From Candidatus Babelota bacterium (GTDB lineage Bacteria; Babelota; Babeliae; Babelales; GCA-2401785): DNA of 61,831 nucleotides. The notes beneath the pieces were generated by a model that saw only the letters and a program-made list of their open reading frames with translations, made no database searches and was not told the origin of the DNA. The stretch spans positions 1 through 61,831 of the forward strand of contig JBHPCE010000001.1 in assembly GCA_042576345.1 (NCBI GenBank), written 5' to 3'. Made by a program: the position numbers and the translations under genes. Positions 7,790 through 60,672 of the stretch are shown in pieces. Each line of letters begins with the position of its first letter. Positions within the stretch are counted from its first letter, which is position 1.

Positions 7790-7803
7790 AAAATAACTTC
7801 GTT

Positions 7804-7824
7804 TGGGCGGCCACGTGCCGCCCA
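7804..7824 (+). terminator. GC-rich hairpin downstream of lon
   Basis: The sequence is tGGGCGGC-cacgt-GCCGCCCa. No clear T-tract follows. Confidence 0.45.
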
Positions 7825-7875
7825 GCTCTCATTTTATAGCAATAAACCTATAGTATGCTTCAGATTTCTCTTTAA

Positions 7876-8045
7876 TGTCATCCCAGACTCGATCTGGGAT
7901 CTAGTCCCTTTTTTTGCCAAAAAATAATTTGGTTCGTGAAATTTGATCAAAGCGCCTTGAGCTGAAAAACCCCTATTCAAGCACCATTCAGCATAAAGCA
8001 TTCTGGATTAAGCGGTCTAGATCCCAGATCAAGTCTGGGATGACA
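7876..8045 (+). mobile_element. MITE copy 1 (nested-palindromic, roughly 170 bp)
   Basis: The termini tgtcatcccagactcgatctgggatctag ... ctagatcccagatcaagtctgggatgaca are inverted repeats of each other. Each terminus is also itself a hairpin (atcccaga/tctgggat). Boundaries are uncertain by about 12 bp. Confidence 0.85.
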
Positions 8046-8372
8046 ATTGAAAAAAATAAGTTTAAAACGCTGTCCCCTCAGCCTCCTGCAGGTGTAAATA
8101 CCTAAAGGTGCGCTACTATATCACCTGCTCAGGGCTGTTCTGAAATCAAAACAAAAAAAGCCCCCATAAAATGTTGCAGAATGCGTTTTTTTCACCTTTT
8201 CGCCCATTTTTAAACAAATTTGCAAAAACATTTTTTATAATATATCATAACCTCATGATGGTCTTTAAGAGGACCTGCAAAATGCAGCCTAAGTTGGATA
8301 GCTGCACTGCGAGACGGTCTCGCAACGGGGAAATGCCCCGAATGTATGTTTAATTAACCAAAAGAGAGGTTA

Positions 8373-9741: not shown

Positions 9742-10788
9742 TTATTTTGTAGCTATGTACTCAAGAACGTCCAAGTTCCTTGGAAAAAAATCCTTATTTT
9801 TTCTGGATTCGCACCAAATTTTCTTTGTCTCATCACTCGAGCAACGCTCAATAAGCCCGTCTATCGAACAAAGAACATTTTCTGGAATAATTACCACTTT
9901 TGTCTTCCTTCCTGTGGTCATGTACACAACAGAAGCCGCAAAGAGACTTTCACTGTCGCACAATCCCTTAAGACAGGTTTTTTCAAGATGCGTAAAATTG
10001 AGCTGTATCGACAACTGCTTATTCTCAATTGATATCCCTCTTTTGCCTCCTTTAGCTTTCCAGCCTAAGTAATTGCACCCCGCAAGACTCCACAGAGCTT
10101 TGTTAAGCTCTATAAACTCATGTTCCATCCTGCCGACAACAGTTGTGTAATAATTTGTAACGCTTTTTAAAACTTCAAAAACCTGCCGCAACTCACTCAC
10201 ACTCAATAGTCTGGAATAACAATCTAGTTCGCGATTCTCACTTCTTGAAAAACTGGTTAAAATTCCAGGCATCAAAATAGCGGCAACGCCTCCTTTGTAC
10301 CTCAAAGATATTGTGAACGGCACTTCCCAACGAACGCTAAACCCAGTTTCCACTTCCTCGTGTGGCCAGGAAAAGTGGCAATAATTTGGAAACTCTTTTG
10401 TCAAAAACATCGAAAAAGTACGTTCGATAGGCGAATTCATGTACTCTGCGACAAGCTCACAAAGCTCTTCTGGAGAATCCTCCCAGGCGTTGTAAACAAT
10501 ATTTTTAAGTTCACAGCAGTTTCTTATCTCTCGCTGGTTAAGCTCTGTTGAAGAGATGGATACAGTGGTCAAAACGCCCAATAATGAAAATACAGATTTT
10601 AACCTCTTTGTCATCCCAGGCTTTGACCTGGGATCTAAACCGATTAATCCCAAATAATTTAACAGAAAATCTTGCTTAGAGCGGCATTCAGACTTTGTTT
10701 CCTTGATCATTTTTATCAAAAAACGGAATAGATCCCAGATCAAGTCTGGGATGACAGATTTGTCTAAAAACGACGCTAACAACTTCAT
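9742..10788 (-). CDS. Hypothetical protein whose annotated 5' end runs through a MITE
   Basis: The ORF of 348 aa has no recognisable motif. Residues 1-59 are a translation of MITE copy 2 (VIPDLIWDL, GLDPRSKPGM). A more likely start is the ATG at 10614, inside the MITE terminus gggATGaca, which gives MTKRLKSVFSLLGVLTTV.... Confidence 0.55.
   Translation of the reverse strand: MKLLASFLDKSVIPDLIWDLFRFLIKMIKETKSECRSKQDFLLNYLGLIGLDPRSKPGMTKRLKSVFSLLGVLTTVSISSTELNQREIRNCCELKNIVYNAWEDSPEELCELVAEYMNSPIERTFSMFLTKEFPNYCHFSWPHEEVETGFSVRWEVPFTISLRYKGGVAAILMPGILTSFSRSENRELDCYSRLLSVSELRQVFEVLKSVTNYYTTVVGRMEHEFIELNKALWSLAGCNYLGWKAKGGKRGISIENKQLSIQLNFTHLEKTCLKGLCDSESLFAASVVYMTTGRKTKVVIIPENVLCSIDGLIERCSSDETKKIWCESRKNKDFFPRNLDVLEYIATK
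10609..10756 (-). mobile_element. MITE copy 2 (shorter, inverted orientation)
   Basis: The termini are tgtcatcccaggctttgacctgggatc ... gatcccagatcaagtctgggatgaca. The internal sequence aligns to the reverse complement of copy 1. Confidence 0.8.
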
Positions 10789-12105: not shown

Positions 12106-12158
12106 CCAGGTCTCCTTTCACGCCAAAAACCGATAGAATTCTTCAAATTTCCCTTTAA

Positions 12159-12328
12159 TGTCATCCCAGACTTGATCTGGGATCTATACCTTTTTTTTGC
12201 TAAAAAAATATTTTGGTTCATGAAATTTTATCTTATCAGTTTAAGCTCGTAATCCTTGTTAACGCATCTTTCGTCATGAAGTTTCCTGTATTAAGCGGCC
12301 TAGATCCCAGATCGAGTCTGGGATGACA
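12159..12328 (+). mobile_element. MITE copy 3
   Basis: It has the same termini and internal sequence as copy 1 (gggatctataccttttttttgctaaaaaaatattttggttcatgaaatt...). Confidence 0.85.
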
Positions 12329-12425
12329 ATAGGTTAAAAAAATCGCTTAAACACCCTGCTCCAAAAATTCTCCTCACGACAACCAACTAAGAACGCCTTG
12401 CCATACATCCAAAAATTTTTTGATT

Positions 12426-17935: not shown

Positions 17936-18000
17936 CCATAGCAAATAATGCTTAAATTTAGACAAGTTAAATATTGAATTTTCCCGTATTTTTTCTCTAA

Positions 18001-18170
18001 TGTCATCCCAGACTCGATCTGGGATCTCTTCCTCTTAATTTAAACAGCCTTGCTATGAAAGGCGCTTGAATAGACATTTCCCAGCTTAAAACATTCCTGT
18101 TCAAATTCTATGAACCAAAACATTTTATGGCAAAAAAAGGACTAGATCCCAGATCAAGTCTGGGATGACA
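18001..18170 (-). mobile_element. MITE copy 4 (inverted orientation)
   Basis: It has the same termini. Its reverse complement aligns with copy 1 (gggatctagtcctttttttgccataaaatgttttggttcatagaa...). Confidence 0.85.
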
Positions 18171-18202
18171 GATTTGTTTAGACATGAGAAATTTTGGCCA
18201 TA

Positions 18203-20605
18203 TCACTTCTTTTTTGAAGAACTCTTTTTCGTTGCCACCTTTTTCTTTGAAAAGGGTGATTTTACCAAAGTTTCTTTTAAAACCTCGTCCATAGTTTTGA
18301 CATAAACAATTTTGATGTCGCCACCAAGCTCTTTTTCGAATTCCTTGATGTCATTTTTGTTTTCCTCTGGAACTATCACTGTTTCAAATCCCAGGCGTCT
18401 TGCAGCCAAAAGCTTTTCTCTTAAACCGCCCACAGGAAGCACTCTTCCGCGCAATGTAACTTCTCCAGTCATTGCAATTTTGTCTTTTACTGCAATTTTG
18501 GTCAAAACAGAAGCTATCGCCGCACCAATTGTTATACCAGCAGAAGGACCGTCTTTTGGAATTGCGCCTTCTGGAATATGAATGTGAATATCCGAGCCAG
18601 AATAAAAATCAGTTTTTACACCTAGTTCTTTTGCTATGGCCCTTATGTAACTGAGCGCAGCCTGGGCCGACTCGTGCATAACCTCTCCAAGCTGTCCTGT
18701 GACAGTTAACTCGCCCTTACCCTTGAAAAATGTAACTTCCACTTCTAAAACGTCGCCGCCAACCTCTGTCCAAGCAAGTCCAGTTGCAACGCCACAGACG
18801 CCTTTTGTGAAAGTATGATGTGCTTTAAAATGAGGAGCTCCAAGCCATTCTTCCAATTTTTTTTCTGTGATGACAACTTTCTTGGGAGGCTTTTCTCCAA
18901 TTAAAAGCTGAATTGCTTTTCTGTAAAGCTTTGCGATCAGTCTTTCCAACTGACGCACTCCAGCCTCTTTTGTGTACTCTTTGATAACTTTTTTGACAAT
19001 GGCATCAGAACATTGAACTTGAGCAGGTTTTAAATCGTATTGCTTCAAAAGTTTTGACATCAGATGCTTTGTTGCAATTTCTAACTTTTCCTCCTGTGTG
19101 TAGCCAGAAAGATAAACAATCTCCATCCTATCAAAAAGAGGAGCCGGAATGTGATCCATAACATTTGCGGTTGTTACAAAAAGAACCTTAGAAAGGTCAT
19201 ATTCAACTTCTACAAAGTGATCCACAAAGCCTTTATTTTGCTCGGGATCCAAAACTTCCAACAATGCCGATGCGGGGTCTCCCCTCATGTCCGAAGACAT
19301 CTTGTCCACTTCGTCAAGCAAAATAAGCGGATTGATAACTTTTGCTTTTTTCATTGCCTGGACAATTTTGCCAGGCATTGCACCTATGTAAGTTCTTCTA
19401 TGGCCGCGTATTTCCGCCTCATCTCTAACACCACCAAGTGAGATCCTGACGAACTTTCTACCCATCGCCTTGGCAATAGATGCGGCCAAAGAGGTTTTTC
19501 CAACACCAGGAGGGCCAACAAGGCAAATTATTGGCGCACGTTCAAGCTTTTCTCCAGCAAACTTTTTGGCCGCCAAAAACTCAATAATCCTTTCCTTGGC
19601 CTTCTTCATGCCAGAATGAGTGGAATCTAAAATTTCTTCTGCCTCAGCCAAGCCAACCTTGTCTTTTGTCTGCTTGTACCACGGCACAGAGGTCAGCCAG
19701 TCAACAAAATTGCGACTCACAGCCGCTTCCGGCGATGATGCAGGCATTTGCTCCAACCTTCGGCATTCCGAAAGTACTTTTTCCTTAGCCTCTTCTGGCA
19801 ACTTTAATTTTTTAACCTTTTTCCGCAAACTCTCTATTTCCTGAGTGATATCTTCTCGCCCAAGCTCACGCTGTATTGCCCGGATTTGCTCGTTGAGATA
19901 ATAATCGCGCTGATGTTTTTCGATCTGACTTTGAACTCTTTTGCGCACACTCTTTTCGGCCTTAAAAACCTCTATTTCGTTCTGAATTAAGGCACATAGA
20001 TGTATTGCTCTTTCTTTAACATCAAGCATTTCCAATAGATTTTGTTTTTCCTTAAAATCCATCTGAACATGAACAGCAACCGAATCGACCAGCGTTTCAA
20101 GATCACTTACAGATTTCAGCGGTGTTAAAGCATCCGGAGAAATTCTATCGTTGTAGGACACATATTCTTTGAATGACAGGAAAATGCGCCTTGAAAGGGC
20201 CTTACGCTCTGTAGCACTCTCCACACCAATAGACTCAACGTCTTGTACAACAGCGTCCAGATAATCTTCTGCATCACCCGGTTCTATGACCCGCGCGCGC
20301 CTAATTCCCTCGACCAAGAGCTTCATTGTGCCGTCTGCATCCTTTTTCATCTGCAAAATCACAGCACGAGTTCCATACTCATAAACATCAGAAACTTTGG
20401 GTCTGACAACCTCACTCAATTTTTGAGACGTCAAAAAGACAGCCCTATCACTCTTGAGCGCCTCTTCAACGGCTCTCACAGAGATATCGCGGCCCACTCG
20501 GACCGGCAAAATCCCCTTTGGGAGCGCCACAACGTTTTTTAGAGGCAAAATGGGAAGAAGCCTTCCCTGAAAAACTTGATCTTTTTTTTCTGCATCTTTA
20601 GGCAT
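18203..20605 (-). CDS. lon: ATP-dependent Lon protease (LonA), copy 2
   Basis: It carries GPPGVGKTS, LILLDEVDK, PKDGPSAGIT and GGLREKLLAARR. The RBS AAGGAA lies upstream. The C-terminal tail is K-rich. Confidence 0.95.
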   Translation of the reverse strand: MPKDAEKKDQVFQGRLLPILPLKNVVALPKGILPVRVGRDISVRAVEEALKSDRAVFLTSQKLSEVVRPKVSDVYEYGTRAVILQMKKDADGTMKLLVEGIRRARVIEPGDAEDYLDAVVQDVESIGVESATERKALSRRIFLSFKEYVSYNDRISPDALTPLKSVSDLETLVDSVAVHVQMDFKEKQNLLEMLDVKERAIHLCALIQNEIEVFKAEKSVRKRVQSQIEKHQRDYYLNEQIRAIQRELGREDITQEIESLRKKVKKLKLPEEAKEKVLSECRRLEQMPASSPEAAVSRNFVDWLTSVPWYKQTKDKVGLAEAEEILDSTHSGMKKAKERIIEFLAAKKFAGEKLERAPIICLVGPPGVGKTSLAASIAKAMGRKFVRISLGGVRDEAEIRGHRRTYIGAMPGKIVQAMKKAKVINPLILLDEVDKMSSDMRGDPASALLEVLDPEQNKGFVDHFVEVEYDLSKVLFVTTANVMDHIPAPLFDRMEIVYLSGYTQEEKLEIATKHLMSKLLKQYDLKPAQVQCSDAIVKKVIKEYTKEAGVRQLERLIAKLYRKAIQLLIGEKPPKKVVITEKKLEEWLGAPHFKAHHTFTKGVCGVATGLAWTEVGGDVLEVEVTFFKGKGELTVTGQLGEVMHESAQAALSYIRAIAKELGVKTDFYSGSDIHIHIPEGAIPKDGPSAGITIGAAIASVLTKIAVKDKIAMTGEVTLRGRVLPVGGLREKLLAARRLGFETVIVPEENKNDIKEFEKELGGDIKIVYVKTMDEVLKETLVKSPFSKKKVATKKSSSKKK

Positions 20606-23898: not shown

Positions 23899-23915
23899 AG
23901 CAATCGAAAAAAAAT

Positions 23916-23944
23916 TTTACATCTCAAAAAATACATGTTATTAT
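23916..23944 (+). promoter_or_regulatory. Conserved promoter box A (TTTACA-17-TATTAT)
   Basis: The sequence tttaca tctcaaaaaatacatgt tattat recurs almost unchanged at 25114-25142. Confidence 0.5.
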
Positions 23945-24097
23945 ACCTATCGAGTTACAAACGTATAAAGTCTATTTTACTACTGCGTTTCATGAGCTTA
24001 ATTATTAAAAGGCTCCGCCACTCAACAGTTTTGGCATAGAGATAATCCAGAAAAATGTAAAAAAAATATATCGACGTTTTAAAAAAGGAAAATTATC

Positions 24098-24835: not shown

Positions 24836-25113
24836 AAATTTTGTTGTAGGTAACCCTTCGCACCACCCAATCCACATAGCTATAAAAAAAATACGGAATT
24901 CCGATTTTAGCGGACCGTGGAACCAGCTGCTACACGGCAAATCAGGCGCTACGCAACAAGATAAGGGAGGCAGTTCAACACTCTACTTTTGCTCTACACA
25001 AAACGTGTAAATTAAAGAAGGACTGTTTTCGCCCTCGTATTTAACGGTAAAGCCATGCAAAATCATTCAGATCAAAGCTCTGGTAAGTGACTTACGGAAG
25101 CAGAAAATAACAT

Positions 25114-25142
25114 TTTACATCTCATAAAATGTGTGTTATTAT
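25114..25142 (+). promoter_or_regulatory. Conserved promoter box B (TTTACA-17-TATTAT)
   Basis: The sequence is tttaca tctcataaaatgtgtgt tattat. Its flanks are also similar to those of box A. Confidence 0.5.
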
Positions 25143-25188
25143 GCATATTGAGTAGTTTTCTAGTTGAGTTTTTAAGAAAGAACATGGA

Positions 25189-25908
25189 GTGGTTGACATG
25201 AAGATGAAAAATATATTTATGGGCATTATTGCGATATTCCTTTCACAAAACATAATCAAAACAACAGAACCATCCCCCTTGACAGTACTTAAAGAGGATG
25301 GAATAAATTTACAGGAAGCGGAAGACATAAGTTCTCGTTTAAATTTGCAACAAAAAATAGATGCGACCAAACAAATCATTAAATCTAGGAGTTCGGCTAC
25401 TGTTACATTTAAACTTAACGGAAAGTTTTACTTCTTTACGCCATTTACAAAAAAATGGTACGTAATTGGATCGTCAAAAGAAACTTCCGAACTTAATGAT
25501 GATGATCTAAAAGAAATCTCTGAGAAAGAATTGCAAAAACTCATACCACCAACAATTATTGGATCGCCAAAAGAAATTTCCGAACTTAATTTCGAAAACG
25601 TTACCTTAGGCTCACTAAAATCACCCTACGCTCTCCTTACAGCCTCGGGAATTTTAATCCCTGTGGGAACGTTAATCTACTACATTATAAAATCAAAAAA
25701 TAAAGGCATGGGCGATAAAATTAAACAAGCGTTCAGAAAATTGTTAAGAAACAAGATTCTGCTTGCATCTTCACTGACACTTTTGACTGTAGGAATCGGC
25801 TCCAAGTGCCTCAACAGAGTGTTCGAAAGTGAAGGGCCATGTAAAACATTTGTTGATTTCATGAACAAGCCATTGGAAGGCTGGAAGAAGTCTGGCGATG
25901 ACGACTAA
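25189..25908 (+). CDS. Secreted/membrane protein, family member A, with a shared C-terminal hairpin module
   Basis: It has a signal peptide and an internal repeat (GSSKETSELN / GSPKEISELN). The C-terminal module ENVTLGSLKSPYALLTASGILIPVGTLIYYIIKSKNKGMGDKIKQ... is shared with 26244-27020. The ATG at 25198 may be the true start. Confidence 0.65.
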   Translation: MVDMKMKNIFMGIIAIFLSQNIIKTTEPSPLTVLKEDGINLQEAEDISSRLNLQQKIDATKQIIKSRSSATVTFKLNGKFYFFTPFTKKWYVIGSSKETSELNDDDLKEISEKELQKLIPPTIIGSPKEISELNFENVTLGSLKSPYALLTASGILIPVGTLIYYIIKSKNKGMGDKIKQAFRKLLRNKILLASSLTLLTVGIGSKCLNRVFESEGPCKTFVDFMNKPLEGWKKSGDDD

Positions 25909-27020
25909 TCAAAGAATCTTTTTAGTTTTGGCCTTTGGCGCTTTTACGTTGGGATTGAGGGCGACTGACGAAACACAAAGCCTCATAGAACAAATAAAAC
26001 GTTGCCAAGACTTCACGAAAACCGAAGGAAAAAGTACTGAAAAGATTTTTAAAAGTATGAATCCGGGCCAAAAGGTTACGTTGGAAGGCGATCTTACCAT
26101 TTACAGAATCAGTGTTGGTGGAAAACCTAAATATGCCCTTAAAGCAAACTATGATGAAAGCGATTTCGCCCTATATGATAATTTAGATGATTTAAGAAAA
26201 ATATTCACAGAAAGTAACTTTCCAAGTATAAAATCTCAAATACATGTACAACACGATAACTCCCCCCCCCCCAAAAATTGGATTTAACATTACTGTTGAC
26301 GGAATAGATTTTTCATGCCAGGGAAACCAAAAACGTGAATGGGATGTTTTTGAAAATGAAGTTAAAAGAAAGCCAACCTATAAAGAACTTTTACTCATAA
26401 CAGAAAAATGCATTTCCTTATCCAAAGCTCATAAATATTACAGAATATTCACTCCAAAACTTCCAATATCCTTTCACGGAAATCCTTTCGTTCATCTCGG
26501 GTTTAAGCCGCCAAAGCCAAAGCCAAAGCCAAAGCCAAAGCAAGAGCCAGCAGATGACGATACTGATAAGGCGCCTCTAGAAAACGTTACCTTAGGCTCA
26601 CTAAAATCACCCTACGCTCTCCTTACAGCCTCGGGAATTTTAATCCCTGTGGGAACGTTAATCTACTACATTATAAAATCAAAAAATAAAGGCATGGGCG
26701 ATAAAATTAAACAAGCCCTCGGCAAACTTGTCAAAAACAAAATTGCACTCCTATCCTCACTCACACTTTTGACCGTAGGAATCGGTTCAAAATGCCTCAA
26801 TGGAGTGTTTTCAGATGAAGGACTATGCAATACCGTTTTTGATTTCATGAACACACCTCTGGGAAGCTCAAAGAAGTCTGAGGTAGGTAGACTCGAAGAA
26901 TTTGAAGATTTATACCCAGAAATTACCACTGGCCCCATTGGTGGTGGCTTACATGACGATAGTGATAACTCACGTCTTCTTCACGGTGAAGAAAATACAG
27001 AGTACGCTGATCAAAGTTGA
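25898..27020 (+). pseudogene. Family member B, split into two ORFs (25898-26287 and 26244-27020) by a C11 homopolymer. It is either a phase-variable gene in the OFF state or a homopolymer sequencing error.
   Basis: The first ORF has a signal peptide (MTTNQRIFLVLAFGAFTLGLRA) and ends ...HDNSPPPKNWI*. The second reads ...TPPPPKIGFNITVDG... and lacks its own signal peptide or RBS. A run of C10 or C13 would fuse them in frame. Confidence 0.6.
26262..26272 (+). repeat. Homopolymeric C11 tract
   Basis: Counted directly: t26261, then 11 C, then aaaaa. Confidence 0.95.
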
Positions 27021-39429: not shown

Positions 39430-42400
39430 ATGCTGCAGTTTTATTTTATTAGAAAATTTATACCCGTTTTATGCGTGTATTTCTTAGCATCCACGTTCAT
39501 CTTTAAACAGCAATGTTATTGCACAGATGATATTGTTGAAGTTGCAGAATGTCTTTGTGGATGCGCAAGGGATATGTGTACAGACGGCTGCTGCCAAGTA
39601 AAAGATTGTATTGGTAGCTGTACTTCATGCTCCTGCGGAGGCTGCTCCTTCGATTACTGTGGAGGTTGCGAAAAAGACTGCGGAGCCTTTTGCTCCGGCT
39701 GCTCAGGATTCTGTAGCGGAATCGGAAGTTGTTTCAAGTGTGAATGTGGAGATGGAATAGGCGGAATTTGCAGCGGATGCTGGGATTGTGCCGCTGGTGG
39801 AAGAACTGATCACTACTGGCGTTCCGATAATCTGGACGTCCAAGGTGCATTAACAACATACAGCAACTTTGAACAAGCCAGTAATATGGTTCATCAAGCA
39901 GCTGCTTGTTGCCAACTGTGCGGTCTGGCCGCTTGTGGGCTTGCTTCATGTTGCAGCTCATGCAGTTGTCGCTCATGCTCAGGACCTAGTAAGCCAGTCG
40001 AACATAAACCTATGCCTAAAAAACAAAAAAAAGAATTTAAAAAAACCGTAAAAACCTTAAAGAAAATGGATAAAAAAGCCCGTGAAATAATGCCCCAATG
40101 GCTTAGAGCATACAGTATGGATAAAAGCAAACTGTTACGTAAGATGGATAAAAGCAAACTGTTACGTAAGGCGGAAGACAAACTTCAACATTTTATTGCT
40201 ACCTACGGGCTAAACAAATATTCTGGATTAGCATTATTCAGGGCCACTTACAAAGCCCTTCAACACTCCCCCCCTACAAAAGATGACTATGGTAGTTTAT
40301 GGTCCAAATTAGCCGGATCTATAGACCGCCGCTTTGGAATTCACTCACTTCCAAGTGAAACGCGCACGTTCCATACCGCTAGTGATATATTATCGAAGCA
40401 TAGATTTGGTTATCATAAGCATCTTAGAGACCAACTGATAGGATCCAAAACACCTTGTGGATTAAGCCCATATACCCAAACAGGAAAACAAATATGCGAA
40501 AAACTGCACCTACTCGGCCCTATTCAAGCTACAAATGAACAAGAAGAACAAATAGAAGCCGAACCCAAAGAATTGAAAGAAGAAGATAAACATGGAACAG
40601 AAGGAGCCCCCCACACCCAGCCAAAAAGGTATCTCACATCAACCAAACTCACACAAATGCTCGCGGCAAAACAGATAGCAAAAGCTGTGATTGATGGGAG
40701 AAAAATAAAGAAAAAAAATATCAAAAAGTTAGAACACTCTGCAGGAAGTGTAACAACAACAGCACTTAATACGGTATTAGATCAAATGATGAACCATAAT
40801 TTAACGGACAAAACCACAAAACCCAACAATTATTTAGAAGTTGCTACAAAACTACTGCCAGGCGTTAACCCTGAAATATTTACTGCAAACTGGTGCATTA
40901 AAAGATTAAAAGAAATTAAAGATAGCGCATCACGAAACAATTCCTTATGCCAAATGCTCGGAAAAATTTTTGATTATTGTATAGAAAAAATGGGCTCCGA
41001 AAGCGGGTTAGAGGATTCTAAAATCAGGTTAGAGGCTTCTAAAATCAAGTTAAAAGTAAGATGGTCTTCAACAAATAACGGTGACCATGTCGATGAGCAA
41101 TTAGAACCTACCTACCCTATGCCCAGTTGTAAACAAAGAAGTAAATGGGAAGAGTGTTTTTATCCGATGCCAGAATTGTGGTATCTAATGCCATCTTATT
41201 TTGCAGGAAAACAACGCGATTATATTAAAGATGGAATCGAACAGGCTGTAGTAATGGCTATGCAACCAGACGGTGGTGTGCAAAACTCAATCTTCGAAAG
41301 AATATTTCTCTTTTCACTATTTCCAAGATGGTTAGAGCCCGTGGCCTTTTTAACTAAAGGGAAACCTCAACCAAGGGAACTTGGGCCAATGTTCACTAAA
41401 TTTAGAGATAAATCCTTCAAATTCATGGAAAAATATGAAGATCCTAAGCTTGCTAATACCCCGTTTCTCTTAACAGTCATGAAAAGCGCTAGGCAAGTTG
41501 CACGATTCCATGATCCGACAAAAGAAAAATCCGTAAATGACGCAATGATCCAGGCACTAAAAAGAATCATTAAACCACAAGAATCGTATATCAGAAAGCA
41601 ACTATTTGAATCAATTTTACCACCAAAGGAAGCTCCAGACGAACCAGAGCCAGAGCCAGAGCCAGAACCTGAGCATGAGCCTAAGCCAGAACCAGAGCCG
41701 GAAAAAGAGCCAGAACCAGAGCGAAAGCAACAAGCGGCACTTCCTGTGGTTTCAGACGAGCCTGCTGTAGTTCCAGACGAGCCTGCTGTAGTTCCAGACG
41801 AGCCTGTAGTTCCAGACGAGCCTGCTGTAGTTCCAGACGAGCCTGCTGTAGTTCCAGACGAGCCTGCTGTAGTTCCAGACGAGCCTGCTGTAGTTCCAGA
41901 CGAGCCTGCTGTAGTTCCAGACGAGCCTGCTGTAGTTCCAGACGAGCCTGCTGTAGTTTCAGACGAGCCTGCTGTAGTTCCAGACGAACCAGAGCCAAAG
42001 CCAGAACCAGCAACAACACCAAAGAAAGGTAAAAAAAAATGGCAAAGGTTGGCATTCTTATTAAAAGCCGGCCTTAAGGCCACGGCAACAGCACAGGAAA
42101 CAAATACAAATAGAACTGAAACCGGATCCAGTACGACTCAATCCGAACTCGCTGCGACTATAGACACTCCTGATATAGAAGCGCCAAAAACCAACAAAAC
42201 GCAAACAACGTCATGCCATACCGATTCCACAGCAGTAAAACTAAAAACTTTTATATCAAAGCCGAATGTTGCTGTAGCATTTGTTGGAGGAGCAGCGCTA
42301 ACCACACACTCCATCTGTTTGTTTAATAACGCAATAAAAATAGCAACAACTACACTTGGCATGAGGCCAAACGAGGCCTTTAAATACGCCATCAAAAAGC

Positions 42401-57244: not shown

Positions 57245-57573
57245 AACACTTTTCCTTTTTTAATTAAACAATCACTAATCCTTCATACAGCAACCGGCCG
57301 CATAATCCCACTGAACACAATAACGATTATAGACCAAAAAAATAATAATGCAAGTCTTCACACAAAATACATCATTTTTATACAGACTGACAATTCGCCA
57401 CCCTCTTTATCCTTTCGATTTCACTGTTCTAGAACTAAAAATCGACAGTACAATACAGAAGTATGGTTCGAGATTTTCTTTGATGCCGTAGGAGCCCCAA
57501 ACCTAACCTTGGGCCTTTACGACACATTTGTTTTTTGGCAAAAAACCGATAGCTTGATTCAGATTTCCCTATA

Positions 57574-57741
57574 ATGTCATCCCAAACTTGATCTGGGATC
57601 TAGTCCTTTTTTGCCAAAAAAATATCTTGATTCATAAGATTTAATCATCTGAACTTAAGCTCAAAAGCCCCTGTTCAAGCGTCCTTTAAAATAAAATCCT
57701 CTGGATTAAGAGGTCTAGATCCCAGATCAAGTCTGGGATGA
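57574..57741 (+). mobile_element. MITE copy 5
   Basis: The termini are tgtcatcccaaacttgatctgggatctag ... ctagatcccagatcaagtctgggatga. The internal sequence is like copy 1. Confidence 0.85.
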
Positions 57742-57756
57742 TGGACTGAAAAAGTT

Positions 57757-57975
57757 CTAAACCAATGGCAACGGCTGTTTTCGGCCTTGCCAAAACTCTG
57801 GGCCATAGTCAATTAAAAGCTGCTCTCCAGGCTTAATATCTCTTGCAGCTACAAAAACCAAGTGCCATAGCCCTCGGTGGTAGACGTACTCCCCATCAAT
57901 GTTTCTTTTCGAGTCGTGGTTCAGAAACCTGAAATAATTCTCGTGTATTTTGGACCTACAAAAGCCATTAAACAT
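57757..57975 (-). pseudogene. 3' fragment of a second SET-domain gene
   Basis: The 72-aa ORF has a C-terminal 60 aa (NYFRFLNHDSKRNIDGEYVYHRGLWHLVFVAARDIKPGEQLLIDYGPEFWQGRKQPLPLV) that duplicates the C-terminus of 59845-60672. The catalytic N-terminal part is missing. Confidence 0.8.
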
Positions 57976-59844: not shown

Positions 59845-60672
59845 CTACGCTAGCGGCAACGGCTGTTTTCGGCCTTGCCAAAACTCTGGGCCATAGTCAA
59901 TTAAAAGCTGCTCTCCAGGCTTAATATCTCTGGCTGCTACAAAAACTAAGTGCCACAAGCCCCTGTGGTAGACGTATTCACCATCAACGTTTCTTTTCGA
60001 GTCGTGGTTCAGAAATCTGAAATAATTACCCTCTCTCATAACATCGATTACAAACTGTCTGTCAGGATTAGCCGAGGGATAGTGAAATAAGTAGTCATTT
60101 TGATGGCTTACTTTGTACACCGGCACAATCTGACCTGCGCATTCACCCAGAAAATCGCCTTTTTTTATCTTGCCTTTTGCGTAAACACCATATCCAACCA
60201 GACTGTTTGTCCATCCAACATAGATCGAACCAATTTCCTTGGAATCAAGTTTTTTTCCAAAGCGCTTTACCATATCTTTTTGATAAGTTCGTTCATCCTT
60301 GCAAAGGTTTATTTGAACATCATCGTCAAAAACATCTAAAGTGGAAGCTACAAGAGAATCTTGGTACTGAGCACCTAGCGCAGGAAAGTCCTTTTTCCAA
60401 TATTTTTTACTTTTAAGTGCTGCCAAGTGAGTTATCTTTTCAACACCTTTTGCAGCAACATCTTTTTCCGAAATCTTGGATTCCACAACCTTAAGAGCAT
60501 GCTTTATGATTGGATTACTAGACTTTTTGTACCCAGAAGGCATTCTAAACTTTGATTTTTTTAATATCCCAGAGCCCTTATGCCGCCTAAAACCACCTGC
60601 AAGTGCACAAAAACTATAAAAGCCCATCAGTGTAACTAACATTGTTAAAAATCTTTGTGAATAAACTTTCAT
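59845..60672 (-). CDS. SET-domain protein (putative protein lysine methyltransferase) with a signal/anchor N-terminus
   Basis: It carries GYGVYAKGKIKKGDFLGECAGQIV, FRFLNHDSKRN (in place of the NHSCxPN box) and GEQLLIDYG (the ELxxDY box). Confidence 0.75.
   Translation of the reverse strand: MKVYSQRFLTMLVTLMGFYSFCALAGGFRRHKGSGILKKSKFRMPSGYKKSSNPIIKHALKVVESKISEKDVAAKGVEKITHLAALKSKKYWKKDFPALGAQYQDSLVASTLDVFDDDVQINLCKDERTYQKDMVKRFGKKLDSKEIGSIYVGWTNSLVGYGVYAKGKIKKGDFLGECAGQIVPVYKVSHQNDYLFHYPSANPDRQFVIDVMREGNYFRFLNHDSKRNVDGEYVYHRGLWHLVFVAARDIKPGEQLLIDYGPEFWQGRKQPLPLA

Follow-up and report, generated by a model that had tools for sequence, protein, structure and literature searches.

A family of intergenic repeats in a Babelota genome bears hairpin ends of the type found in Ssn nuclease cassettes

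Introduction

What moves a small repeat whose ends fold into hairpins, and why does it lie beside genes? These questions are raised by a 61,831-nt stretch of DNA (the window), contig 1 of the metagenome-assembled genome (MAG) of a Candidatus Babelota bacterium (JBHPCE010000001.1, assembly GCA_042576345.1), which carries five copies of a repeat of about 170 bp. An original prediction, made from the window alone, had described these copies as MITEs (miniature transposable elements with inverted repeats) that always sit just 3' of a stop codon, and had proposed that they were either targeted to terminator regions or recruited as terminators or RNA-stability elements. Here, we followed the family through the whole assembly and into related genomes. 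We consider, with a probability of about 0.68, that it is a gene-less, non-autonomous form of a cassette in which an Ssn-type GIY-YIG nuclease gene lies between two hairpins of the SRM type (SRM-ssn-SRM), comparable to the NIMEs of Neisseria or to REPINs. Since the ends of the element are those of SRM-ssn-SRM cassettes, its cognate enzyme is likely an Ssn-type nuclease and not a classical transposase.

The partnership between Ssn and SRM is already known, and the family adds to it rather than representing a new kind. In Neisseria, the repeat NTS was defined as CGTCATTCCCGCGMAVGCGGGAATCYRG and generalized as SRM (Chenal et al., Nat Commun 2025, PMC11893778). Ssn GIY-YIG nucleases bind NTS/SRM hairpins solely as single-stranded DNA (ssDNA) and cut a few nt upstream; they act neither on the reverse strand nor on RNA, and recognition depends on sequence as well as on structure (PMC11893778). 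According to the same authors, SRMs lie on both sides of 42% of the ssn homologues and are enriched in symbionts, Wolbachia carries SRM repeats that were shown to be substrates of an Ssn nuclease, and the NTS-ssnA-NTS layout was likened, as a hypothesis only, to an insertion sequence (IS) (PMC11893778).

Hairpin ends and the SRM motif

Each end of the element opens with TGTCAT and closes with ATCTAG, between which an 8-bp stem and its return strand enclose a CTYGA loop. The hairpin proper (ATCCCAGA/CTYGA/TCTGGGAT) has a folding energy of -7.2 to -7.9 kcal/mol as ssDNA (z ~ -3.5), and the whole element also folds better than its shuffled versions (z = -5.9). When the terminus TGTCATCCCAGACTTGATCTGGGATCTAG was searched with up to three mismatches, nine sites were found in the window (7876, 8017, 10728, 12159, 12300, 18001, 18142, 57575 and 57715) and none in 100 shuffles; the tenth terminus, at 10609-10638, has a 1-nt insertion. 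The five copies predicted are therefore real, their cores agreeing within 1-2 nt with the coordinates first proposed, and so are the inverted terminal repeats, of 29 nt where about 28 bp had been claimed, and the nested hairpin with its 5-nt loop in each terminus.

The ends have the oriented structure of SRMs, that is, an HGTCWY head, a stem-loop and an RNCYNB tail: TGTCAT-CCCAGA-CTTGA-TCTGGG-ATCTAG aligns position by position with the NTS, CGTCAT-TCCCGCG-MAVG-CGGGA-ATCYRG. The published search pattern for SRMs, HGTCWYN(0-2)YYVSBRHN(0-5)WNVSBRGN(0-2)RNCYNB, is fitted literally by six copies in the genome that have a CCCGGG stem and, with the single pair at which the major stem departs from it relaxed (see below), gives 46 matches vs 6-13 in shuffles. 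Throughout the assembly (766,731 bp in 57 contigs, ~40% G+C, 62% complete), 57 termini lie within five mismatches of the consensus, with head and tail conserved. Across 43 distinct hairpins chosen without any pairing criterion, the stem is paired in 93.3% of cells and covaries, with 59 double-change cells vs 17.5 +/- 4.7 after shuffling, a count reached by none of 500 shuffles; neither the CTTGA loop nor the flanks vary. G:U or U:G wobble is rare in the stem (10 of 344 cells), as would be expected if folding is required of either DNA strand, and which speaks against a transcription terminator or an RNA-stability hairpin.

The motif extends far beyond this genome. The exact 24-nt hairpin TCATCCCAGAYTYGATCTGGGATC was found in more than 109 stretches of reference genomes from many phyla, including Saccharibacteria and other members of the candidate phyla radiation, Dependentiae/Babeliales, Margulisbacteria, Zixibacteria, Bacteroidota (among them the cultured Zunongwangia, Mesonia and Aquimarina) and Alpha- and Gammaproteobacteria (including Erythrobacter longus). 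The hairpin's usual partner in these genomes, 10-60 nt away, is an inverted one of the GGATTCC...GGAATGAC type.

A much denser expansion than the one described here was observed in the Rikenellaceae MAG372 (JBCQVS01; loci L024, L026, L028, L036, L038, L051, L059, L064, L071, L073 and others). This genome has dozens of doublets of ~95-110 nt with the identical CCCAGA-type hairpin at both ends; their inner repeat, CTACAA...TTGTAG, is conserved, and they have GGGATGACG half-sites dispersed around them.

Ssn-type nuclease genes between hairpins

In nine of the loci with the exact 24-nt hairpin, an open reading frame (ORF) of ~100 aa with a GIY-YIG domain, recognizable by the motifs YVYILASKRNGTLYIGVTNNL..R..EH ... 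REKQLK.W.R.WK, stands directly between two hairpins. Among the loci found with PF01541 alone, hairpins lie on both sides of 6/9 Ssn-like genes and of 0/24 genes of other small GIY-YIG subfamilies. Loci bracketed on both sides include L108/L129, whose nuclease gene is flanked by a hairpin identical to TGTCATCCCAGACTYGATCTGGGATCTAG, L023, L126, L142, the sister-species locus L137 and others. Within the same order, 10 of the 12 best-match loci that were fetched have an Ssn-like gene accompanied on one or both sides by an SRM variant of its own.

The sister species of the same genus, G001, which was also used for the comparison of orthologous sites, has an intact gene (L137) between TCATCCCGGACCCCGATCCGGGATC and GATCCCGGATCAAGTCCGGGATGA, the stop codon lying inside the right hairpin. 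Its product fits the single-domain architecture of ~90-110 aa, with a GIY-YIG domain above the Pfam cut-off (G001:C69:4124-4345, 56 bits); sequence searches of NCBIfam and PDB gave no named match for the nuclease. After the right-hand hairpin of this ssn gene (L159/L137, G001:C69) there are 3-4 tandem copies of GCGGGATGACAATTTGGAAGT, that is, half a hairpin plus flank, an array that looks like a repeated partial end duplication.

In the assembly under study, PF01541 has a single match, a 531-aa ORF taken to be a putative UvrC-like protein. A profile of the ssn subfamily, in turn, detected one frameshifted relic (C20:5584-5887) with the pieces MKIYTVYIMTNRPRGIFYVGFTFD and LIKRVQEHKRG...SGKDPGSSPG. 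The frame of the relic runs into the right-hand hairpin, whose TGA is the stop codon, a layout identical to that of L137, and the relic adjoins a full copy of the element.

Anatomy and gain of the inserted unit

A profile of the element detected 54 loci in the assembly, of which 30 are full length and ~20 are fragments. The dominant doublet has a fixed length of 169-171 bp. Its interior is polar, with a T-run after the left hairpin and GGATTAAGCGG ahead of the right one, and it has drifted much more than the ends: identity between copies is 95% at the left end, 89% at the right end and 65% in the interior. The earlier description as a MITE-like, multi-copy, non-coding family is fair, given that the element has inverted terminal repeats and is small and numerous, and that the longest open frame in any copy is 56 aa and no frame is conserved between copies. 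Among 61 related genomes, full-length matches were confined to this one, the relatives sharing at most the hairpin, and no match came from metagenomes scanned for either the same species or the right end specific to the family.

In most copies homology runs on past the inverted repeats, with ~42 nt of further similarity at one end and ~75 nt at the other. The inserted unit is thus a composite in which outer arms of 32-77 nt are added to the 170-bp core, with a total length of ~285-292 bp. The arms, T-rich beside the hairpin and all starting with TATRGY at the outer end, fall into at least four types, which were found in the combinations 1+2, 4+3, 1+3 and 1+4; the core occurs in either orientation within them, and both orientations are also present in the window (three plus, two minus), as predicted. 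A search of the assembly for empty shells, arms without hairpins, found none. Collapsed forms also occur; one of them (C4:15982-16022) is a 41-nt perfect palindrome, TGTCATCCCAGACTTGATC joined to CCAGATCAAGTCTGGGATGACA, in which two ends are fused and the interior is wholly lost; it retains the flanking arms of types 1 and 4.

Comparison with G001 provides the evidence for the gain of the unit. The spacer between prfA and nupC measures 42 nt in G001 vs 320 nt here, the difference being the composite at 12122-12405, and that ahead of a ruvA-like gene measures 41 nt vs 315 nt (C7:20915-21206). At both sites the segment absent from G001 comprises arms and core, ~285-292 bp, and its arms end 17 nt and 24 nt upstream of the starts of nupC and the ruvA-like gene, not on the start codons. 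These two insertion polymorphisms show that the composites were gained one by one. A third orthologous site (C24:4810) is occupied in G001 by an unrelated 83-nt hairpin doublet and is hence uninformative, and at the lon2 site synteny with G001 is broken on one side.

Contig breaks in G001 coincide with two sites. The flanks of the copy at C7:20994 are at the ends of G001 contigs C23 and C14, which overlap by only a few bases, and the copy at C14:15242 has one flank at the end of contig C61 and the other on contig C52; such repeats probably fragment these MAG assemblies. Another copy (C16:18248-18401) is close to a tRNA gene (...GGTTCGAGTCCCCCCTCTTGCACCA), ~60 nt from its 3' end.

Proposed mechanism and alternative explanations

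We propose that the hairpins would fold when the DNA is exposed as single strands, as at replication forks or in the course of repair, that an Ssn nuclease would bind the folded hairpin and nick on its 5' side (on either strand, the side facing out of the element), and that repair or replication would then copy or move the unit. Only hairpins that are still recognizable would be retained, which would explain the conservation of the ends (89-95%) vs that of the interior (65%).

Several observations weigh against a derivation from Ssn cassettes. (i) The major stem, CCCAGA/TCTGGG, departs from the literal SRM pattern in one of its covarying pairs, which is A-T instead of S-S. (ii) The GIY-YIG proteins, Ssn-like by domain, size and hairpin context, are only putative homologues of the Neisseria SsnA (cd10448). 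(iii) The assembly holds no intact ssn gene, and the hairpin of the relic is the CCCGGG variant and not the major one; since the assembly lacks 38% of the genome, little weight can be given to the absence of an intact gene, and the copies may be fossils or else rely on a gene located outside the assembled part. (iv) If the element were a deletion derivative, its interior should resemble a cassette, and it gave no significant alignment to the ssn relic or to the sister cassette, both orientations being alike; the resemblance to cassette ends is limited to ~10 nt, ATTAAGCGG beside the right hairpin and GTCC plus a T/A-rich tract beside the left. (v) The weak point lies in the 32-77-nt arms, which belong to the gained unit and which a cut of the Neisseria type, ~3 nt upstream of the hairpin, leaves unexplained. 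(vi) The junctions at the two empty sites are too diverged for a target-site duplication to be called, TG or TA being possible at prfA-nupC. (vii) Transposition of Ssn cassettes or SRM doublets is put forward by Chenal et al. (PMC11893778) only as a hypothesis.

Because the arms are unexplained by a Neisseria-type cut and the interior is not demonstrably derived from ssn, a conventional transposase acting on the TATRGY ends is a live rival, even if an improbable one. The composite would then be a classical MITE moved by a DDE transposase (e.g. of the IS630/Tc1-like type at TA) through its outer ends, with the SRM hairpins as passengers, and its parent would be an IS with TATGGCAAAG ends encoding the transposase. 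The extent of the unit missing from the sister species, arms included, argues in favor of this possibility, as do the imperfect outer inverted repeat of ~19 nt shared by arm types 1 and 2 (TATGGCAAnG.AC...TAG), the outer ends that begin with TA as in Correia elements (TATAGCGG...) and the finding that arms never occur without a hairpin. However, at least four unrelated arm types that combine freely and have only their first six bases in common would be unexpected for a single transposase with defined inverted repeats, and it is the hairpins that are the most conserved part.

The search for such an enzyme was negative as well. The original prediction was right that the window has no transposase gene, and neither Y1/RAYT (PF01797), DDE_3 (PF13358, IS630-type), DDE_Tnp_1 (PF01609, IS4/5-type), rve (PF00665) nor any multi-copy ORF was found in the 62%-complete assembly. 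An origin from IS200/IS605 or RAYT elements was rejected with the absence of a Y1 gene from the assembly, and one from IS630, IS4/5 or rve-type DDE elements with that of the respective transposases. An IS of full length with the same ends and a transposase was likewise absent from the assembly; full-length relatives carry the GIY-YIG gene instead. Membership of a larger known IS, which would have counted against the original prediction, is borne out in part: the repeat belongs to a larger unit, the composite, and its ends are of the SRM-ssn-SRM type.

Just as improbable as a classical MITE is an alternative in which the repeats have been domesticated and are no longer mobile, the hairpins together with an Ssn nuclease restricting or shaping the recombination of incoming or exposed ssDNA near particular genes. 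Such a role has been shown for NTS and SsnA in N. meningitidis, and the reported enrichment of SRMs in symbionts would agree with it (PMC11893778), as would the conservation of the hairpins relative to the interior. The sole ssn gene of the assembly is broken, however, and the two insertion polymorphisms show units gained one by one. These intracellular bacteria are not known to undergo natural transformation, which also counts against this alternative. Moreover, domestication is compatible with a mobile origin and so is not exclusive of a descent from Ssn cassettes.

Position relative to genes

The proposal that the repeats were targeted to gene ends, or recruited there as terminators or RNA-stability hairpins, was examined against 625 genes called crudely from ORFs, which together make up 89% of the genome. 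It is correct that all five window copies lie past a stop codon, the distances from core to nearest stop being 86 nt (lon1), 140 nt (nupC), 97 nt (prfA), 65 and 32 nt (the lon2/ORF16925 site) and 13 nt (the SET fragment). This regularity does not hold genome-wide, and the intergenic make-up of the genome would place 5/5 copies beside a stop by chance with a probability of 18-40%. The 30 full copies and the ~20 fragments all lie between genes. Among the 28 full copies with a called gene on both sides, 10 are between convergent, 7 between divergent and 11 between tandem genes; the 10 convergent sites, vs 4.3-4.8 expected (p ~ 0.007), are the only real positional signal. Distribution relative to stops is thus within chance, while the excess between convergent genes is real. 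Three of 61 hairpins fall inside called ORFs, two of which are over-extended or doubtful, the third hairpin being a weak chance match. Altogether, the location reflects tolerance of insertion between genes, especially convergent ones, and not targeting of stop codons.

A function in termination or RNA stability is very improbable, although the left-end hairpin is followed by T7 and copy 1 has a weak terminator-like site at 7896-7908, where a terminator scan flagged only a 5-bp secondary stem. The gap between stem and T7 is 7 nt, vs 0-2 nt in intrinsic terminators. The lon1 gene has its own terminator (Table 1), which precedes the element, so that the latter is not needed for this purpose. The orientation bias at tandem sites might suggest that the polar end matters to transcription, but 10/11 copies are antisense to the genes (p = 0.012), so that the hairpin and T7 are kept out of the sense transcript, and the sole exception is the lon1 copy, downstream of lon1's own terminator. 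We infer that the bias results from selection against the polar hairpin-plus-T-run end inside operons; alternatively, it might be linked to the direction of replication, as in elements that depend on ssDNA.

The left interior has a sigma-70-like sequence, TTGCCA-17-T(A/G)GAAT, which points into the element; in copy 4 it lies at 18105-18133 on the minus strand (10/12), and other copies have it at the same position. Judged from its placement, this promoter-like motif would drive antisense transcription toward the upstream gene at most tandem sites. That the elements are small-RNA genes of the WsnRNA46 type with an internal promoter is hardly credible, for all that this motif (TTGCCA-17-TAGAAT in copy 4) and an end-to-end match to RF02625 might suggest it, as the match scores 40.5 bits against a gathering score of 65.3 and derives from the hairpin ends alone, the interior is poorly conserved, and Ssn proteins do not bind RNA (PMC11893778).

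Copies in the window and neighboring features

The coordinates of the window copies are collected in Table 1. Their neighbors had been named as lon1, nupC, prfA, lon2 and a SET-domain fragment, and Pfam upheld these assignments (two Lon paralogues, NupC and RF-1). An ORF at 9742-10788 overlaps the core of copy 2 solely through an over-long 5' extension, and the outer end of the type 4 arm of copy 4 touches the lon2 stop codon (minus strand, TGA directly followed by TATGGCC).

Table 1. Copies of the element, their outer arms and the lon1 terminator in the window.
Feature	Position	Strand	Evidence and remarks
lon1 intrinsic terminator	7803..7835	+	GGGCGGC-ACGT-GCCGCCC followed by a T-rich tail; outside the element
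Outer arm type 1, copy 1	7830..7875	+	TATAGCAATAAACCTATAG...TTTCTCTTTAA; nhmmer left-flank profile, E=4e-9; flank alignment
Core, copy 1	7876..8045	+	Hairpin 7876-7904, polar interior of ~112 nt, inverted hairpin 8017-8045; profile 170 bits
Outer arm type 2, copy 1	8046..8124	+	Ends in ...GCGCTACTATA; nhmmer right-flank profile, E=1e-9
Core, copy 2	10609..10756	-	148-bp deletion variant; left hairpin with 1-nt insertion; 140 nt past nupC stop
Whole composite, copy 3	12122..12405	+	Arm 1 12122-12158, core 12159-12328, arm 2 12329-12405; fills the prfA-nupC spacer
Outer arm type 3, copy 4	17936..18000	+	cATAGCAAATAATGC...TTTTTTCTCTAA; flanks compared with C20:11546 and C4:26449
Core, copy 4	18001..18170	-	Between convergent ORF16925 and lon2
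Outer arm type 4, copy 4	18171..18204	+	Reverse complement ATATGGCCAAAA...TAAACAAATC; flank comparison
Outer arm type 1, copy 5	57531..57574	+	nhmmer E=1.7e-10
Core, copy 5	57575..57743	+	Right end degenerate (GGGATGATG); 13 nt past stop of the SET-domain fragment 57757-57975
Outer arm type 2 (weak), copy 5	57744..57830	+	nhmmer E=4e-4

Next to copy 5, a 173-nt segment (57767-57939) is duplicated at 59855-60027 with 93% identity, the 72-aa ORF at 57757-57975 having been copied from the SET-domain gene at 59845-60672, of which it represents the 3' half. The end of the duplicate is ~24 nt from the element, which may therefore have taken part in the rearrangement.

The window has other repeats as well. 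Twelve tandem copies of a 21-nt unit (CTGTAGTTCCAGACGAGCCTG), mostly identical, occupy 41702-42013 in a coding-looking region and would encode a perfect 7-residue protein repeat. A 49-nt A/T-rich upstream segment (23907-23955 and 25105-25153, 82% identity) and a 300-nt repeat (25594-25893 and 26580-26879, 85% identity) belong to the adjacent paralogous genes at 25189-25908 and 26244-27020, whose products are 82% identical over 101 aa.

Significance

These results extend the partnership of Ssn nucleases and hairpins to Dependentiae, intracellular bacteria of protists with reduced genomes. Compared with the description of 2025, the new aspects are the organization of the hairpins as fixed, MITE-like doublets in which the polar spacer is conserved and the outer arms are modular, the presence or absence of composites at orthologous sites, which is direct comparative evidence of one-at-a-time gain, and the occurrence of one exact hairpin variant in many phyla. 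They are relevant to whether Ssn cassettes should be seen as mobile elements or as domesticated tools of the host. It is tempting to speculate, and possible though doubtful, that SRM-ssn-SRM cassettes are autonomous transposons of an unrecognized class, driven by a ~100-aa GIY-YIG nuclease that acts on folded ssDNA, and that this family is their non-autonomous derivative; in that event, the composite arms and their free recombination would record the cutting and rejoining of elements, and the identical 24-nt hairpin in more than 10 phyla would record horizontal spread. For annotation, the element explains spurious small ORFs and contig breaks in MAGs of this kind, and such repeats should not be read as terminators or small-RNA genes.

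Comparison with known systems

The closest known system is that of Ssn and SRM (PMC11893778). As in that system, the repeat has (C/T)GTCAT, a palindrome and ATCYRG in the same orientation, it is present in tens of copies that are almost never inside genes, and inverted hairpins bracket ~100-aa single-domain GIY-YIG genes in relatives, a relic being left in this genome. In contrast to it, the main stem carries A-T at a pair that has to be G/C in the published pattern, the hairpins form fixed inverted doublets with a conserved polar spacer of ~110 nt and outer arms, and the host is an intracellular Dependentiae MAG with a broken nuclease gene.

The NIMEs of Neisseria, RS blocks bounded by dRS3, are likewise intergenic mosaics of 30-150-nt blocks between hairpin repeats of 20-30 nt, with several block types in varied combinations. 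The dRS3 consensus ATTCCC-N8-GGGAAT is nevertheless not the one found here (ATCCC-N11-GGGAT), the block sequences are unrelated, and in the present family one doublet of fixed length (169-171 bp) dominates. The REP/REPIN-RAYT systems share with it the inverted doublets of structured hairpins scattered between genes, the retention of hairpins while spacers drift, and a cognate gene for an ssDNA-specific enzyme that is flanked by repeats; they differ in that PF01797 is absent here, the head is TGTCAT and not GTAG, and the enzyme is a GIY-YIG nuclease, with no known strand-transfer chemistry.

Classical MITEs such as the Correia elements are also small, non-coding and numerous, have inverted ends, lie near genes and may have polar effects, and the ends of Correia elements resemble the outer TATAGC/TATGGC ends of the arms. 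Unlike them, the family has no related DDE transposase in the assembly, its arms are heterogeneous, and its conserved parts are the internal hairpins and not the outermost ends. Finally, an Rfam search returned RF02625 (WsnRNA46; E=5.5e-7, the other matches being noise), with an alignment through both hairpin ends (GUGUCAUCC...GGGAUCCAG ... CUGGAUUCC...GGAUGACAC) around an element interior that is unrelated and ~66 nt longer; most likely, RF02625 describes a Wolbachia SRM doublet and not an RNA family that includes this element.

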